37,358 bases of DNA from a virus. The notes beneath the pieces were generated by a model. That model did no database searches. It was not told the DNA's origin and saw only the letters and a program-made list of their open reading frames with translations. The stretch is from UHGV virus genome UHGV-0063828. The stretch is one strand, 5' to 3'. Shown here in pieces: positions 2,926 to 37,308 of this stretch. Position numbers and translations under genes: made by a program. The first letter of the stretch is position 1; every line of letters begins with the position of its first letter.

Positions 2926-3108
2926 TTACCACACCTCTGCGGTAATCTTTACTTTAATGTCATACTTCTTTAAGAGTTTGTGGAAGGTTGATTGATCAAT
3001 ACCTTCACCTTTAAACCATTCACCCATCACTACATCAGGTGTCAGTTCAAAATAACGCTTTGCCATTTCTAAAACGATTTCGCGAGTGAACTTAACAGGT
3101 CGTGCCAT
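2926..3108 (-). CDS. Small HTH-type DNA-binding protein (60 aa), candidate regulator
   Basis: Strong AGGAGGA SD before ATG; borders the large repeat-rich non-coding region and is divergent from the rightward early genes. Confidence 0.5.
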   Translation of the reverse strand: MARPVKFTREIVLEMAKRYFELTPDVVMGEWFKGEGIDQSTFHKLLKKYDIKVKITAEVW

Positions 3109-3626
3109 CTCGAATCCTCCTAAATCTGGATTAATGATTTCTTAAAAAAGAGCGTTAACCGCTCACTATTATTTATATGGGGATTGTATTTTATTTTTCA
3201 ACCCCTCACATTTATCTCTTATATATGTATTTATAACAGAGATATGTTAAAATGTTATTCAGATGTTATCAGGCGTGTTAAATGTGTTAAACCACAGCAC
3301 GAATTGCTAAAGCGAAGAACACGATTTAACCAAATTGATGTTTATTCAATCAATTTAGAAAAAGGCATAGCACTTTTTGCTAAAGCGGTGAGCATTAATT
3401 GAGCTATGAATTGTAAAGATTTGTTACAAGATTTTCTCTCAGATCCAAATCTTCACAGACATATAACAATTTAACACGGTGATAACAATAGGAAGGAAAA
3501 TCGGTAAATTTTCACTTTCAATACAAATATTATACCACATTTTTCTCGAATTGTCAAGTATAGCACCAAACCTACATAGTGTCAAGAAAGGACTTTCAAA
3601 CCTACACTAGCCCTACACTATGAAAA

Positions 3627-3866
3627 TTGCCCCTGAATTTTTGCCCCTGAACCAAAATCCCCCTAGATTCCACATCCCATTTTTGCCCCTGAAACCCACT
3701 ATTTTTGCCCCTGAAATTCTGGGGAACAGTGATTTTGCCCCTCATTTTTGCCCCTGAAATGCCAATAATTGCCCCTGAAAATCTCATTTTTGCCCCTGAA
3801 ATTTGCCCCCGAAAAGGATTGGTGAGAAAAACTCTTTATAAAACATTAACTTAGTGAGGGGCAAAA
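3627..3866 (+). repeat. Iteron-like array: 7 perfect and 2 variant direct copies of TTGCCCCTGAA, plus one inverted copy
   Basis: Perfect copies start at 3627, 3641, 3683, 3705, 3748, 3769, 3790; variants at 3735 and 3803; inverted GAGGGGCAAAA at 3856-3866; same motif forms the hairpin at 6324-6345. Confidence 0.85.
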
Positions 3867-4016
3867 GCGAGGGATCGGGCGTGCATAGATATTATATAAC
3901 ACATTCGCTACGCTCATGTGTAAAACCAAAAACAACAAATAACCAAAAAGATATTAGGAGGGCGTAGCCCGACTGCGCGAAGCGCCAACCAATTACTTCT
4001 AGTAACAACTAATTTA

Positions 4017-4230
4017 AACTAGATGATCTTAGAAGGAATTAACTAGTTTGCTCGCTCGCTTCGCTCACTCTCAAACGTCTGCGACGCCACTGCGTGGCAT
4101 CGAGAATCACTTCTGAAAGGATTTTCTTGAAAGGGATTTTAAACTAGTTACTAACTGATTCTAGAAAGATAGTAATAATCACTTTGAAGATAATAGTAGT
4201 TAACTGGTTACTAGATGATTCTAGATCACT
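4017..4230. repeat. Cluster of ACTAG-centred palindromes and direct repeats
   Basis: AACTAGTT at 4041-4048 and 4142-4149; AACTAGATGATCTTAGAA at 4017-4037 vs TTACTAGATGATTCTAGATC at 4208-4229; TCTAGA sites. Confidence 0.7.
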
Positions 4231-4485
4231 TTAATGATCATGAAAGGTATTGGTTATCCCTTCGGGATTGCAACCTTCGGTTGCTAAATTGCTTCCTGAT
4301 TATAATTTCTCCAAAAGAAAGATTCTTATATTCTAAAGATACTTCTTCGTTTTGATGATGATTTAATCAAAATCTATGAAGGAGGCGAAGCCGACTGAAT
4401 CCAATCACTTCCAAATAGATAAAAAATTCTCGTTATAAATACTAGTGTAATTTGTTTGATTCACTTTCTTTTAGAGGATACCACT

Positions 4486-4938
4486 ATGATCAATACTAAA
4501 ACTCCTTTCATTCTTCTGGGTCTGAACCATGATGATAATCTGGCTATGATGCATGTTTTCGCTAATCGTGGTTATAACATCATTCGTCATTCCGAAGACT
4601 CCAATTTCTCAACTGCTTTCTATGCTCTTAAACGTAATGGTCGCCCTACGGTTATCGTAGACTGCTTTACTGATGAAGGTCGTGAACAATACAACAACAT
4701 TCCGGCAATTATTGTTCGTGATGACCTGCCGTTTGATGTTCGTGAATATGACGTTGATTTAGGCTCTTACTACGGGATCGCGGATCTTGACCAGATTATG
4801 GCTGATTATGGTAAACAACCCGCTCAGGAAGCCCCAGAACACGATGAACAAGACGAAGATGACGACGACTACGCACCAATCGCTTTTTCTTCTCACGGTG
4901 GCTTCTACGGTTACGATGAAGGCTTAGATATGCTGTAA
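4486..4938 (+). CDS. Acidic early protein (150 aa), function unknown
   Basis: AGAGGA SD before ATG at 4486 (track start 4456 is a TTG); first gene after the non-coding region; very acidic C-terminal half (EHDEQDEDDDDY). Confidence 0.5.
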   Translation: MINTKTPFILLGLNHDDNLAMMHVFANRGYNIIRHSEDSNFSTAFYALKRNGRPTVIVDCFTDEGREQYNNIPAIIVRDDLPFDVREYDVDLGSYYGIADLDQIMADYGKQPAQEAPEHDEQDEDDDDYAPIAFSSHGGFYGYDEGLDML

Positions 4939-4973
4939 GTTAGGTCAACCCTTTGGCGTTTTGTCAAGGGGTA

Positions 4974-5003
4974 TTGACAAAATTTTATGACTTTTTTATG
5001 ATT
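4974..5003 (+). promoter_or_regulatory. Sigma70-like promoter TTGACA-N18-TATGAT with adjacent palindrome TTGTCAA-N6-TTGACAA (4961-4980)
   Basis: Hexamers read directly; located upstream of the gene at 5059. Confidence 0.45.
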
Positions 5004-5058
5004 ATCGCACTTGACAACTTTGAACCTATTTGACCTAGATTTGTAAAGAGGGTGTAAC

Positions 5059-5391
5059 ATGAAAGAATTTACCATCACTAAATCCCTGTATGACTGGACT
5101 GTTAAAATCTCCGGCAAAACCGTTTCTGTAAGCCCTAGCCATGTAGAAAATGATTGGGGCGTATCCCGTGAAACAATCTCCCGTAGTATGCATGTTCCGT
5201 TTGATCTGATGTCCTTAACTGGTATTCATGCAATGCTGGAAGTTCGCGAGCAATTCGAAGCTGGTAATCACAATGCGACTCCAGTTAGCAATCACCTTCT
5301 TACTAATGAAGAACGTGAAATCATCGAAAACTGGCGTTATGAATATGCGATTCCTTATTATGAAGAAGACCAAGTAGAAATCGATTGGTAA
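5059..5391 (+). CDS. Hypothetical protein (110 aa)
   Basis: AGAGGG SD; preceded by promoter-like TTGACA-N18-TATGAT. Confidence 0.5.
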   Translation: MKEFTITKSLYDWTVKISGKTVSVSPSHVENDWGVSRETISRSMHVPFDLMSLTGIHAMLEVREQFEAGNHNATPVSNHLLTNEEREIIENWRYEYAIPYYEEDQVEIDW

Positions 5392-6397: not shown

Positions 6398-6625
6398 TCA
6401 AACTCCGTTGATTGGTACAACCTCTCCACCGTCTACACGTATAAAGAACTCGACATTAAGTTTCTTCATACTTTTATAAAACTGGGCGGTGGAGATGCCC
6501 AGATCGTTTAATACTTTCTCTCTGCTTTCTTTACCTTTGCCAGCTTTGTAAAACTCGTAGCAAATGTATGCCAGTTGTTCACGATTAAAACGGGCAGGGC
6601 GACCGCGAGTAGCTTTAGTAGTCAT
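6398..6625 (-). CDS. Small DNA-binding-like protein (75 aa) sharing a C-terminal motif with the adjacent 200 aa protein
   Basis: Start placed at ATG with GGAGAAA SD (track start is a GTG); RGRP N-terminus; C-terminal KKLNVEFFIRVDGGEVVPI resembles [21 protein letters not shown] of the neighbour. Confidence 0.4.
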   Translation of the reverse strand: MTTKATRGRPARFNREQLAYICYEFYKAGKGKESREKVLNDLGISTAQFYKSMKKLNVEFFIRVDGGEVVPINGV

Positions 6626-6660
6626 AGTCATTTTCTCCAAATTAAAGTGAATGTTCACCT

Positions 6661-7263
6661 TTATTTAGAGGACTTAGATTTTATAGGAAAAAGTTCTCCA
6701 TCGTCAATACTCATAAAGAACTCAACCTTAATCCCGTACTTCTTCAACCGTGAATAATATGTACCCCGACTTATATCAACCTTGCGAAGCACTTCAAAGA
6801 AGGATTTAGGATCGTTGTAATAGTGGCTGTACTTCACGTTAGCGAGTTCAACGAATAGTTCCCTTGTATCACCATAGCCTTTCTTGAAAGCGATGTTACG
6901 AGGCATTGTAACAGCCATATTATCCCGTGTCTGTTTCAACACTTCTCGGATCGGCTTCCACTGCAACCGATAGATAGGACCGTCATCAATGCGATAATAA
7001 CGCTTGATATCAAAATCAAACCATTCACGGACTCGCTGAAACTCTGTCTGTGATGTTCGGTGCTTCTTAAAGAAGTTATGGATATCTGTATACCCATGAT
7101 CGCGATACAACTCGATTAAAATTTGCTTCGCTTCTTCGCGACTAAAGCCGGATGTTGTGTAATCAGTCTTCTTGTGATGGTGCTTAACTGGCAAACGATA
7201 TTCATGATCGGTACAAGACAAGGCTAATTCTAATTCATCTCTTTCTTGCTGATTAATTAGCAT
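6661..7263 (-). CDS. Hypothetical protein (200 aa) with repeated HTH-like modules
   Basis: Strong AAGGAGGG SD; internally repeated helix-rich units; divergent from the large terminase gene. Confidence 0.5.
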
Positions 7264-13551: not shown

Positions 13552-13842
13552 ATGTTCAAATTATCAGAATCACAATTATCAAGAATGTTCCGAAGTGCTC
13601 CTGTATTTTCGGTGGAAGGTGGTAAATCAATTCGTGCTTATCATGAAATTACTACTACCGACGAACAAGGGGTAATGACAGAGACAGAATTTTTATTTTG
13701 TCGTGAGGGAGACTTAAAGCAGGGTGATATTGTCATTGTAGAAAATCAGCGTTTCAAAGTTCAATACGTTAAGCGCAATGGTGACAATACAACTGATTGC
13801 TTTATCACTCTGGCAGGGGGTACACATGCTCGCTACCGTTAA
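13552..13842 (+). CDS. Putative head-tail connector / head completion protein (96 aa)
   Basis: AAGGGGG SD; position immediately after capsid gene and terminator. Confidence 0.45.
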   Translation: MFKLSESQLSRMFRSAPVFSVEGGKSIRAYHEITTTDEQGVMTETEFLFCREGDLKQGDIVIVENQRFKVQYVKRNGDNTTDCFITLAGGTHARYR

Positions 13843-14248
13843 TAATATGCCGAGACTGAAAATCAAACGCGCCTTGCAAGATATTATCGAACAAGATTTA
13901 GGTCTGGCTTTAAACGTAGAACAAACTCAGCAAGGCTTTAGTGATGATGTGGTTTGTTGGATCACCGGAATGAATGAGACTTACACTAGGGTCCGTGGTG
14001 GTAATGCAATGCAAGCTGAATGCGTTATCGAAATGCAATTGTATTCTCAGATTCATGAAACCAAAATTCATGAGGGTATTTGCCAGATAATCCAGATTCA
14101 GCCGGATAACCCACGTTTTAAAGATTTGGGCTTCGCTATTTCAGATATCACTCCAGTAGCTTCTAATACCGATTATGACGATGATTCTAGTGATGGGGGT
14201 ATCGTTGGGACACTTAGCCTTAAATTTTCTTATCTAGCGCGTTTTTAA
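13826..14248 (+). CDS. Putative head-tail connector protein (141 aa)
   Basis: Start placed at ATG 13826 with GGGGG SD, overlapping the previous gene end; positional inference only. Confidence 0.4.
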   Translation: MLATVNNMPRLKIKRALQDIIEQDLGLALNVEQTQQGFSDDVVCWITGMNETYTRVRGGNAMQAECVIEMQLYSQIHETKIHEGICQIIQIQPDNPRFKDLGFAISDITPVASNTDYDDDSSDGGIVGTLSLKFSYLARF

Positions 14249-34359: not shown

Positions 34360-36039
34360 TTAAATTCCAAATTCCTGTAATGGACCTGGTATTTCCTCTT
34401 CTGGTTTCCAGTTCTTATCTGTCAGCATGTCTAAACATGGATGCAAAACAAGCCCGTTACTTTCCAGAATCTGCCTATCATTGATAGTTTTCAAATCAAT
34501 GAATATCCGGCCTTTCCTCGTTCCTCTTGAATTTTCTATTACAACTCTCTGGGTTTTTCCATCGATGTATTCCAGTACAAACAAGTTTTTGTTTCTGTCA
34601 ATCCTGCTACACCCGATCCGCTTTAGAGCTTGCTTAATCTTAAACCGGACCTTTAGTCGTTCCTCGTTGTAAACATCTTCTAAATCAAATTCTGCGAGCT
34701 TCTCCCAGCCTTGAGAGTCAACAGAATACATTTCCTCTTCTGCCATCTTGATCTGATTGTAGAGTGTTTCACGCTCGCTATTGAGGGTAGTAATCTGATC
34801 GGCTAGTTCCTTCGTTGCTCCTGTCATAGCAGAAAGGGCAATCAGGTTATCAATCTTGCGTGATATCTCATCAACCTGTACTTTCAACGCCGGAACCGGA
34901 TTAGCCTTATCCTCAGCAATCCAGATTTTATCAGCCAGCAATTGCAATACAGCTTTCTCTAATTGATCACCTCGAAAACTCCAGTTTGGATGCTCGCAAT
35001 CAAGTCTACGTGAACGGGTCGCATCACATGTATAACGATACTGGTCAGAACGTTTGTTCGTTCCCTTCACTTTAACCATAGCGCAACCGCAATGATCACA
35101 TTTCAATAGGCCAATACCACTAAGCAGGGGGATCGGTTTAACTTCTTCCTTGTCTCCAAAGTTCCATGCTCTAGCACCAATATTTTTCTTAAGGTGATAG
35201 AACGTAGCATCATCAATAACACGAGGGTAATAATCCTTTAACTCATAGTTAACGCCATCTACAGAGACCTCCTTGATACCAATCAAAGCGCGGGTATGAA
35301 ACAACCTTTCAACCATTGCCCGTGACCATTTTGAATGCTTCTTATTACTAACCGCTGGTGGTGGTGCATATGTCTCGTTAAGGTGATCCAGTATTTCGGC
35401 GGTTGAACGTCCATTCTTCCGTAATTCCACAATCTCCTGAACAACAGGGAAGAAGACCGGATGAGGCAACACATAACCGGAAGTGGTATCAGTCCACCAC
35501 ATATTCTTTCCAACTTCCTCGATTGCCACTGCCGGATTCTGGGGATTTTCTTGATGGGCTTTAATCTTAATCAGTGCGCTTGAGTTAGTACGATTGCGCT
35601 TAGTCTGGCTTTCCTCATTACCACGGATGAATAAAAGGATGGAGAACATCAGGTCCATCGGATTAGCGGTAACAGTATCCAGCGAGTAGATCTTGTTATC
35701 CATGCCAGTAACAATGGTTATCCCCCTACGGATTATTGAAAGGAATAACTCCTGCGCACTGACAATATCGGCACGGGATAAACGGTCCAAGTTTTCAATG
35801 AATAGCCAGCTACCAACAGGAACGGATCTACCAATTGCATCAAGGAAACGAGATAGCGCCCCTGTTTTAGAGTTAGCACCTTTAAACGCAGATACACCCA
35901 GATCCTGATAATCATTTACCAGTTCTAAGTCATACTTTGCCGCAATCTCTCTCGCCATCCTGATTTGTCGTTCATAACTCGAACCATCACTCTGACGCAT
36001 AGACGAGAAGCGAATATACGAATACAGTTTAGTTTTCAT
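34360..36039 (-). CDS. Large serine recombinase (integrase)
   Basis: N-terminal resolvase-type catalytic domain (YSYIRFSSMRQ, ENLDRLSR); cysteine-rich zinc ribbon (CDHCGC...YTCDA...CEH); C-terminal coiled coil; ~559 aa from ATG at 36039. Confidence 0.85.
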   Translation of the reverse strand: MKTKLYSYIRFSSMRQSDGSSYERQIRMAREIAAKYDLELVNDYQDLGVSAFKGANSKTGALSRFLDAIGRSVPVGSWLFIENLDRLSRADIVSAQELFLSIIRRGITIVTGMDNKIYSLDTVTANPMDLMFSILLFIRGNEESQTKRNRTNSSALIKIKAHQENPQNPAVAIEEVGKNMWWTDTTSGYVLPHPVFFPVVQEIVELRKNGRSTAEILDHLNETYAPPPAVSNKKHSKWSRAMVERLFHTRALIGIKEVSVDGVNYELKDYYPRVIDDATFYHLKKNIGARAWNFGDKEEVKPIPLLSGIGLLKCDHCGCAMVKVKGTNKRSDQYRYTCDATRSRRLDCEHPNWSFRGDQLEKAVLQLLADKIWIAEDKANPVPALKVQVDEISRKIDNLIALSAMTGATKELADQITTLNSERETLYNQIKMAEEEMYSVDSQGWEKLAEFDLEDVYNEERLKVRFKIKQALKRIGCSRIDRNKNLFVLEYIDGKTQRVVIENSRGTRKGRIFIDLKTINDRQILESNGLVLHPCLDMLTDKNWKPEEEIPGPLQEFGI

Positions 36040-36051
36040 ACCATTTCCAAA

Positions 36052-36088
36052 CAAAAACGCCCCTACCGTGTATTATAACGATAGGGGC
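36052..36088 (-). terminator. Minus-strand terminator between secreted-protein gene and integrase start; loop contains TATAAT
   Basis: On minus strand GCCCCTA...TAGGGGC stem followed by GTTTTTGTTT; candidate integrase promoter overlaps. Confidence 0.45.
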
Positions 36089-36657: not shown

Positions 36658-36927
36658 TTACTTCTTGCTAATAAACTCTTTGTAGATAAAATCTAAGACT
36701 TCCTTTAACTTCTTATCGGTGTCAATCATCACCGGAAGTTCTTCTTTAATATCGCGAGGAAGATACACATTACCTTTCCAGAACAAGCAACCACATTGAG
36801 CAATCGAATAGCTGAACATCCATTCACAATCTTGTTCTATCTCCCAGAATCTAACCTGCTCATCTTCGAGTTGAAGTTCGATTCCACGGCGGCGAGCATA
36901 GTTATGGATTGCTTTGGTAATGTTCAT
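36658..36927 (-). CDS. Hypothetical protein (89 aa) abutting attR
   Basis: GAGAGGATA SD; start lies ~30 bp from the host junction, so its promoter must lie in host DNA in the integrated state. Confidence 0.5.
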
Positions 36928-36939
36928 CGTTGTATCCTC

Positions 36940-36975
36940 TCGTGTTATTGTGGGTACATGATATTAGGGAATCCC
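36940..36975. other. Approximate prophage-host junction (attR) inside ycdX
   Basis: Phage gene SD at 36928-36936; YcdX-like coding sequence recognisable from ~36966 (GGGAATCCCAAATATGAAAT); exact crossover cannot be set without the uninterrupted host allele. Confidence 0.55.
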
Positions 36976-37308
36976 AAATATGAAATAGATGTGAAAGCCG
37001 TTGCTGAAGCAGCCGCGAAACATCAGGTGGCGCTGGAAATCAATAATTCTTCATTTTTACACTCACGTAAGGGCAGTGAAGACAACTGTCGTGCGGTAGC
37101 CGCAGCGGTACGTGATGCTGGAGGTTGGGTGGCATTAGGCTCGGATTCTCACACCGCGTTTACCATGGGGGAATTTGAAGAGTGTCTTAAAATCCTCGAC
37201 GCGGTAGATTTTCCGCCAGAGCGCATTTTGAATGTTTCGCCGCGCCGCTTACTGAACTTCCTTGAATCTCGCGGTATGGCACCGATTGCGGAATTTGCAG
37301 ACCTTTAA
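36961..37308 (+). pseudogene. ycdX: 3' remnant of host PHP-family phosphoesterase gene ycdX, truncated by prophage insertion
   Basis: Translation [32 protein letters not shown]...PIAEFADL matches the YcdX C-terminus as recalled; the upstream part of the track ORF (36796-36960) is phage-derived read-in. Confidence 0.7.

Follow-up and report, generated by a model that had tools for sequence, protein, structure and literature searches.

The gene at 4486–4938 (+) of the window, which is the whole stretch of 37,358 nt analysed here from UHGV virus genome UHGV-0063828, is a real, conserved gene. It encodes an acidic protein of 150 residues with two distinct parts, a folded and fast-evolving N-terminal domain and a polyacidic, predicted disordered tail that ends in a conserved aromatic/hydrophobic motif. 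The best explanation for this 150-aa protein, to which we would assign a probability of about 0.35, is an abundant two-part partner-binding or decoy protein, the tail of which would block a conserved and probably host partner, with the N-terminal domain adding specificity; what is inferred here is when the gene is expressed, that a partner exists and which one it is, and how it would be blocked. Upon induction or infection the protein would be made in stoichiometric amounts, and its tail would sit on a surface of the partner that is basic and binds nucleic acid, or that docks peptides. The acidic run would then serve as an electrostatic mimic of nucleic acid, with the Tyr, Phe, Leu and Met residues anchoring the tail and the N-terminal domain giving specificity or a second contact. 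Most likely the partner would be a protein from the host's DNA metabolism or its defences, so that competitive blocking would result in host takeover or counter-defence.

Anti-defence activity of the 150-aa protein is possible, and it is a reasonable candidate for a host-directed early function. Whether it stands for a new class of counter-defence or host-hijack protein, combining a disordered polyacidic tail and aromatic anchor with a diversifying domain and produced as abundantly as capsid when the lytic phase begins, is doubtful. Should the tail block a host nucleic-acid-binding protein, a disordered-tail mode would be added to the known rigid DNA mimics, and the short conserved tail peptide could serve to fish out the protein that it binds. 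The gene is also a clean candidate for a defence panel, being small, orphan, conserved and apparently abundant, with one fast-evolving domain. The finding would be an ordinary one if the product served replication or regulation as a routine cofactor.

Prophage context

The window is essentially one prophage of ~37 kb inside E. coli ycdX. The counterpart of the region in the chromosome of E. coli ETEC1703, 96.6 % identical, lies within a split ycdX, and the last ORF of the window (36796–37308) is the 3′ part of ycdX, which encodes a PHP-domain protein. The coordinates of two of its genes are:

639–1208: small-terminase-like gene, left arm
34360–36054: large serine recombinase gene

In the left arm, the small-terminase-like gene is followed by a gene for a 94-aa membrane protein, the leftward 313-aa (1871–2812, −) and 60-aa (2926–3108, −) genes, a gap and the 150-aa gene. 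Thereafter come a 110-aa gene (5059–5391, +), a Rha-family gene, the leftward 86-aa (6398–6658, −) and 200-aa (6661–7263, −) genes, a gpA-type large terminase and the portal, and then a protease–capsid fusion, tail genes, lysis genes, a UvsW-like helicase and two CapR/T5orf172 proteins. The small-terminase-like gene is thus ~6 kb from the large terminase gene (7351), with regulatory and accessory genes located between the two. The closest phage match to the capsid among 50,697 sequenced phage records is 45 % identical, and no nucleotide match to the prophage was found in phages or plasmids. The prophage family is extremely mosaic and lacks a close sequenced phage relative; it is a little-studied family of E. 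coli prophages, the regulatory and replication modules of which are uncharacterised. A tRNA-Gln of 91 nt is called by ARAGORN at 14013–14103 (−), inside and antisense to the ORF at 13778–14248; from its length and position this call is probably a false positive.

Coordinates, family and distribution of the 150-aa gene

The coding sequence and its ribosome-binding site are:

4486–4938 (+): coding sequence of the 150-aa acidic protein, from the ORF list and the sequence, stop codon counted in
4473–4478 (+): Shine–Dalgarno sequence AGAGGA, 7 nt before the ATG, read from the sequence

The ORF runs for 150 codons from an ATG at 4486 to a TAA at 4936–4938. The Shine–Dalgarno sequence is conserved as TTTTAGAGGA, and its GAGG and the start codon are kept in all 30+ aligned alleles; a longer TTG start at 4456 does not have Shine–Dalgarno or conservation support like that of the ATG. 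The gap upstream (3109–4485, 1,377 nt) is free of CDS both in the annotation of the closest RefSeq genome and among the genes called on related contigs, and the 150-aa gene is therefore the first rightward gene after the gap. The pI of the product, 4.17, is the lowest among the 38 ORFs tabulated in the window. It has 30 D+E against 10 K+R for a net charge of −20, divided as −1 over the first 75 residues and −19 over the last 75.

No hit at E ≤ 1 was obtained with the 150-aa protein in Pfam, PHROG or NCBIfam, and 15 family members searched against Pfam and PHROGs gave nothing consistent even at E ≤ 10. PADLOC defence-system profiles did not hit the 150-aa protein or its immediate neighbours, and a sequence profile search of the PDB returned noise only (TCR alpha, E 0.18; CheY-3, E 0.23; calmodulin). 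The original prediction had described a first gene after a large non-coding region, a strong Shine–Dalgarno sequence, a very acidic C-terminal half and no recognisable motif, and this description stands in each respect.

The gene is under purifying selection: pairwise dN/dS over 33 distinct alleles is ~0.29, with 0.23 for codons 1–110. These ratios, the homologues, the existence of distant full-length members and the conserved Shine–Dalgarno sequence and start together establish that the gene is real. Seventy-six homologue clusters were recovered, every one of them named 'hypothetical protein', from E. coli/Shigella with one stray Salmonella label. An exhaustive HMM search of 1.84 billion representatives gave only 11 hits and added just three more distant full-length members (37–39 % identity), plus fragments; an ankyrin-repeat protein among the 11 was rejected as spurious. 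Homologues down to 37 % identity retain the length and architecture of the protein. In the loci of two distant homologues, P0078 and P0080, the gene occupies the same slot, between a gap of 1.4 kb with iterons and the Rha gene, and in the P0080 locus a 218-aa CapR/T5orf172 gene is located inside that gap.

The gene is present in 56 of 5,426 complete E. coli genomes (about 1 %) and is always chromosomal. By tblastn, no match was found in 72,556 plasmids or in 50,697 phage records, megablast with the region likewise gave no match in phages or plasmids, and the GTDB species-representative genomes scanned contain no relative. The full-text literature yielded nothing relevant on the protein or on ycdX prophages. 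Among 29 related IMG/VR contigs, which were collected via the neighbouring 200-aa gene, 28 carry the 150-aa gene; the exception (L039, 7850–8104, −) has the first 32 codons only, fused to unrelated sequence. Additionally, the allele of L031 has an internal stop after codon 114. Given the truncated copy (1/29 loci) and the internal-stop copy, the gene is dispensable, at least for carriage of the prophage. Frameshifted versions are also found in the database (P0077 and P0081).

Protein architecture and predicted structure

Three segments are distinguished within the coding sequence:

4486–4815 (+): folded α/β N-terminal domain, codons 1–110, β1-α1-β2-α2-β3-α3-β4 … α4, fast-evolving
4816–4869 (+): polyacidic low-complexity linker QPAQEAPEHDEQDEDDDD, codons 111–128, of variable length
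4870–4935 (+): conserved aromatic/hydrophobic C-terminal motif YAPIAFSSHGGFYGYDEGLDML, codons 129–150

Two AlphaFold2 runs were made, with 31 and 32 sequences, the second including distant members, and both agree in giving residues 1–110 a pLDDT of 70–87 and residues 111–150 a pLDDT below 50. Residues 111–150 are predicted to be disordered, with the caveat that the low pLDDT of the tail may simply reflect unmodelled structure. The folded domain is mildly acidic (17 D+E against 10 K+R). The tail has 13 D/E and zero basic residues, and so provides −13 of the net −20 of the protein.

Linker length and composition differ between alleles. Even in members with an overall identity of 37 %, residues D128, Y129, P131, F134 and L150 do not change, and Y143, G146, L147 and M149 hardly vary. 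The family-wide tail motif is DDDYxP[IV]xF[SY][SA]…[FY]Y(GY)x[DE][GA][LF][DEQ]ML-COOH, which can also be summarised as DDDYxP[IV]xF…YGYxEGLDML. A conserved tail end combined with a linker of variable length is a pattern typical of short linear docking motifs, and the tail end may be one. A search for other carriers with the tail alone returned just fragments of the same gene and no other protein family.

In the AlphaFold2 models, the topology of the N-terminal domain weakly resembles that of P-loop nucleoside/nucleotide kinases (gluconate kinase, the PNK kinase domain and designed P-loop 2x3 folds). However, the Walker A motif GxxxxGK[ST] after strand 1 is absent in every member, with LLGLNHDDNLAMM at this place in the 150-aa protein, and no catalytic motif was found despite the kinase-like topology. 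The ordinary enzymatic fold that would have counted against the original prediction of an anti-defence role was thus not seen, the kinase likeness being weak and the P-loop absent. The domain also does not have the acidic pocket of a CheY-like receiver (DD after β1, D after β3), nor the T/S after β4 and K after β5.

Codon adaptation and rate of change

Codon adaptation indices (CAI) were calculated with the Sharp & Li (1987) E. coli values and are a proxy for expression only. The values of interest are:

313-aa gene: CAI 0.64
Tail tube: CAI 0.62
150-aa gene: CAI 0.50, rank 3 of 38 ORFs
110-aa gene: CAI 0.49
Major capsid: CAI 0.47

Capsid and tail tube, the most abundant virion proteins, rank at the top, which supports the use of the proxy. 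The CAI of the 150-aa gene stays high in divergent loci (0.48, 0.52 and 0.39). The protein is probably highly expressed, and the codon usage points to abundant, stoichiometric use over a catalytic or regulatory amount.

The two parts of the protein change at different rates. Identities to the orthologues in the L068 locus are:

164-aa protein: 84 %
TerL, portal, Rha, 200-aa and TerS-like proteins: 55–65 %
Tail of the 150-aa protein: 55 %
Capsid N-half: 44 %
N-terminal domain of the 150-aa protein: 35 %

In this comparison, the N-terminal domain evolves at roughly double the rate of the phage core genes. Together with the high codon adaptation, this strengthens the descriptive profile given in the original prediction. 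In the L070 locus the N-terminal domain is undetectable by tblastn, yet the tail still aligns. Within E. coli, the N-terminal domain falls into deep allele classes with dS of about 1. This within-species divergence is not special to the domain, because TerL, Rha, the 60-aa and 86-aa genes and other genes of this mosaic prophage family show similar deep classes. Co-variation of N-terminal domain alleles with neighbouring genes or iteron type amounted to weak linkage with physically adjacent genes, in a sample that is small and phylogenetically structured. Such a lack of co-variation fits a partner located outside the variable left arm.

Upstream region and iterons

The gap between the 60-aa gene and the 150-aa gene contains the following features:

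3109–3620: replaceable cassette, swapped between related prophages
3626–3815: nine iterons TTTGCCCCTGAA and one inverted copy, spaced about 13–43 bp
4240–4485 (+): upstream leader/promoter region of the 150-aa gene, conserved whatever the iteron type, from an alignment of 32 distinct upstream regions
4256–4284 (+): two adjacent short GC-rich hairpins, ATCCC-TTC-GGGAT and GCAACC-TTC-GGTTGC, from the sequence and RNA folding
4434–4441 (+): TATAAATA box, an inferred candidate −10 element, invariant in all aligned alleles

The gap, which the original prediction called a regulatory region, is not a single one, and at least in part it looks like an iteron module.

Within the cassette, leftward sigma-70 promoters are predicted at 3557→3529 (12/12, with an extended TG) and 3585→3557 (11/12). 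A leftward transcript of ~380 nt (3525→3140, −) would contain no ORF and would fold strongly (z = −6.3 against shuffles), and its predicted end is a terminator-like hairpin at 3150–3164 followed by a U run. Such an RNA could serve as a long leader for the 60-aa gene or as a non-coding RNA of the immunity type. Rfam searches of the gap at gathering and relaxed thresholds gave no credible RNA family.

The N-half of the 313-aa gene accompanies the TTTGCCCCTGAA iterons in 18/18 loci, against 0/14 loci with other iterons, and this pairing holds although the cassette between the two recombines. Other family members contain AAACCTACACTA-type, CTTGGAAGATTCC or ATCCCTAG iterons together with a different gene of 318–357 aa; the ATCCCTAG iterons number about 15 copies, several of them at 11-bp spacing. 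Distant prophages have iterons of differing sequence at the same location. These patterns, from loci L002–L037, L068 and L070, suggest a swappable module of iterons and a cognate binding protein, which could form an origin or another protein–DNA assembly site.

At loci with other iteron types, only ~18–28 % of 3621–4400 still matches the window, and conservation is seen from about 4240 onward, in an upstream alignment that spans 260 nt before the ATG. The hairpin pair at 4256–4284 is replaced in L029 and L033 by a different stable hairpin, GACGCTC-AGG-GAGCGTC, and could act as an insulator, a terminator or a leader element. UUCG tetraloops were considered for these hairpins and dropped, as the pairing gives triloops and not the canonical cUUCGg. 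The TATAAATA box has no recognisable −35 and was not flagged by the sigma-70 scan, which found no promoter scoring ≥ 9/12 on the + strand between 3600 and 4486. Repeats of the extended TATAAATA motif elsewhere are not above chance, and likewise no promoter box or operator common to the region upstream of the 150-aa gene and other places exceeded chance.

A unit consisting of AGGAGG, a short GC hairpin and GACTG occurs twice in the gap, at 3957–3985 (AGGAGGGCGTAGCCCGACTG) and 4379–4399 (AAGGAGGCGAAGCCGACTG). In other alleles the second copy keeps its stem, with variation in the loop and in stem length (GGGCTTTAGCCC, GGGCTTTGCCC and GGCGAAGCC).

Since the 150-aa gene adjoins iterons that are found together with the 313-aa gene, a role in the replication or packaging of the prophage itself is a serious alternative to the blocking of a host partner, albeit an unlikely one. 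In such a role the protein would be an accessory acting at the iterons, and its tail would recruit the sliding clamp, DnaB, an SSB-partner or a phage protein. The gene directly flanks the nine-iteron array and is near-universal in the lineage, the iteron type is tied to the 313-aa gene, and distant relatives keep an array of different sequence in the same place. Additionally, among the 16 ORFs scanned at the two ends of the prophage (up to 7351 and from 28862 on), no recognisable replication initiator, primase or helicase loader was seen, and a UvsW-like helicase was all that turned up. The β-clamp-binding consensus is QL[SD]LF or QLxLxL, and clamp-binding peptides include QADMF and QLxLF. The GLDML C-terminus is loosely like these peptides, and all members end in [GA][LF][DEQ]ML, a clamp-like hydrophobic pattern; however, they lack the leading Gln, and the SSB-like DDD..P..F element lies within the protein and not at its C-terminus. 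The acidic protein is itself unlikely to bind DNA, its very high codon adaptation would be unusual in an initiation cofactor, and truncated and stop-containing copies exist. The N-terminal domain alleles, moreover, are independent of iteron type and of the presence of the 313-aa gene, which in this small sample weakens the replication reading.

Downstream boundary

The region between the 150-aa gene and the next gene has one prominent feature:

4960–5002 (+): perfect palindrome TTTGTCAA-GGGGTA-TTGACAAA (N6 spacer), overlapping the −35 of an 11/12 sigma-70 promoter for the next gene

The intergenic region (4939–5058) is conserved at 87–98 %, even where the next gene is replaced. As the palindrome and the 11/12 promoter precede the next gene, that gene is served by its own promoter and operator, and the palindrome is probably the operator of a Rha operon made up of the 110-aa and Rha genes. 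The same operator was not found upstream of the 150-aa gene. No terminator-like site was found between its stop codon and the next promoter, and read-through into the next gene is possible.

The neighbourhood also raises the idea that the 150-aa protein is part of a lysis–lysogeny switch, an antirepressor or anti-adaptor that would work with the downstream Rha-family gene in a manner recalling the P1 immI operon. DNA-binding repressors can be inactivated by small acidic proteins through mimicry, and the order of a leader RNA, a small first gene and an antirepressor is immI-like. The gene is located between the variable cassette, with its leftward promoters and structured leftward RNA, and the Rha-family gene, and its conserved, structured leader travels with it. 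We regard this idea as improbable, however. The Rha operon is separated from the 150-aa gene by its own promoter and palindromic operator, an operator that the 150-aa gene does not have upstream, and no homology to known antirepressors was found. A specific antirepressor would be expected to co-vary with its repressor, but the N-terminal domain alleles do not co-vary with the helix-turn-helix-like 60-aa, 86-aa and 200-aa proteins or with the cassette at 3109–3620; the same small sample thus counts against a switch component as it does against a replication factor.

Comparison with known acidic proteins

Blocking of a host partner by the tail finds its nearest parallel in proteins that dock through acidic tails. 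The acidic, aromatic-tipped tails of SSB (E. coli …DFDDDIPF) and T7 gp2.5 dock on partners, and they and nucleic acid compete for basic clefts. The 150-aa protein resembles these in its predicted disordered acidic stretch, its DDDDYAPIAF segment and its hydrophobic C-terminus. It differs from SSB in having no OB fold and no predicted DNA-binding N-terminal domain. Furthermore, DDDDYAPIAF is internal (residues 125–134, with 16 residues following) and does not form a free C-terminus of the SSB type, …DDDIPF-COOH, and the order within it is P-I-x-F, compared with I-P-F in the SSB-type tail. By analogy, the architecture appears more like that of docking-tail proteins such as SSB and T7 gp2.5 than that of rigid mimics, a likeness in kind only.

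Ocr of T7 (gp0.3) and ArdA of conjugative elements are DNA mimics, the former directed against restriction and BREX. In Ocr, a folded dimer, carboxylates on the surface imitate bent B-DNA, and its 116 aa include 34 acidic and 6 basic residues (PMC3439906). ArdA forms an elongated dimer with three alpha–beta domains per monomer and a helical Asp/Glu pattern imitating 42 bp of DNA (PMC2731889). The 150-aa protein is like Ocr in being small and very acidic, in having a good ribosome-binding site and no enzymatic motif and, from codon adaptation, in being probably abundant. It is unlike Ocr in that most of the charge is placed by the models in the disordered tail, with a folded part that is alpha/beta and mildly acidic, and in that Ocr belongs to a lytic phage with ordered genome entry, whereas the 150-aa protein belongs to an integrating temperate prophage. 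With ArdA it has in common acidity, alpha–beta units and carriage by a mobile element, but it consists of one 110-residue domain with a floppy tail and never occurs on plasmids.

A sequence relationship to Ocr was not detected in Pfam, PHROG, NCBIfam or the phage tblastn, and the N-terminal domain, with 17 D/E against 10 K/R, is not an Ocr-like folded body saturated with acidic surface residues. There is no Pfam match to ArdA and no elongated three-domain dimer with a helical Asp/Glu pattern. For ArdB/KlcA there is likewise no Pfam hit of any kind, nor a match in the 72,556 plasmids, which are the home of ArdB/KlcA. The protein is not a member of the Ocr or ArdA family.

The proposal that a folded, charged surface plugs the DNA groove of a type I restriction–modification or BREX system, as a rigid dsDNA mimic of the Ocr/ArdA kind, is very improbable: the folded domain has 17 acidic and 10 basic residues where Ocr has 34 and 6 in 116 aa (PMC3439906), −13 of the net −20 falls in the predicted disordered tail, neither sequence nor structure matched Ocr, ArdA or ArdB/KlcA, and the gene is absent from plasmids and lytic phages, where such genes are common. 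The original prediction had seen in the gene the classical profile of a DNA-mimic anti-restriction protein, and this part of it is not upheld, both AlphaFold2 runs placing the charge in the 40-residue tail. Reasoning from the order of gene entry, as in T7, would also not transfer to an integrating temperate phage. Some properties nevertheless agree with a rigid mimic, namely the lowest pI of the prophage and the net charge of −20, the high codon adaptation expected of a stoichiometric inhibitor, and the orphan and fast-evolving character of the gene. Nor does an alpha/beta fold exclude mimicry, because DNA mimics have no common fold and ArdA itself is alpha–beta (PMC2731889).

Additional observations on neighbouring genes

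The 313-aa gene has the highest CAI in the prophage, above capsid and tail tube. Its product is 99–100 % identical among the matches listed, which comprise hundreds of E. coli entries, and its middle part is a coiled coil, with a C-terminus that is acidic and aromatic (…DEMYGTNFSYCQ); neither protein families nor the PDB gave a match for it. The abundance that its codon adaptation implies would be odd for a replication initiator.

The 110-aa gene encodes an acidic protein (pI 4.8), and its L068 counterpart has a CAI of 0.62, compared with 0.49 in the window. The gene is accessory, being absent or replaced by a 48-aa ORF in many relatives, and has no family match.

To the eye, three sequences appear paralogous: the 60-aa protein, the 86-aa protein and the C-terminal part of the 200-aa protein. 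No other repressor was recognised in the prophage, and from their sequences these three proteins are candidate small DNA-binding regulators. They have in common RGRPxxFxRE and YxxLKKYxIKVxF-like motifs, and each occurs in several deep allele classes.
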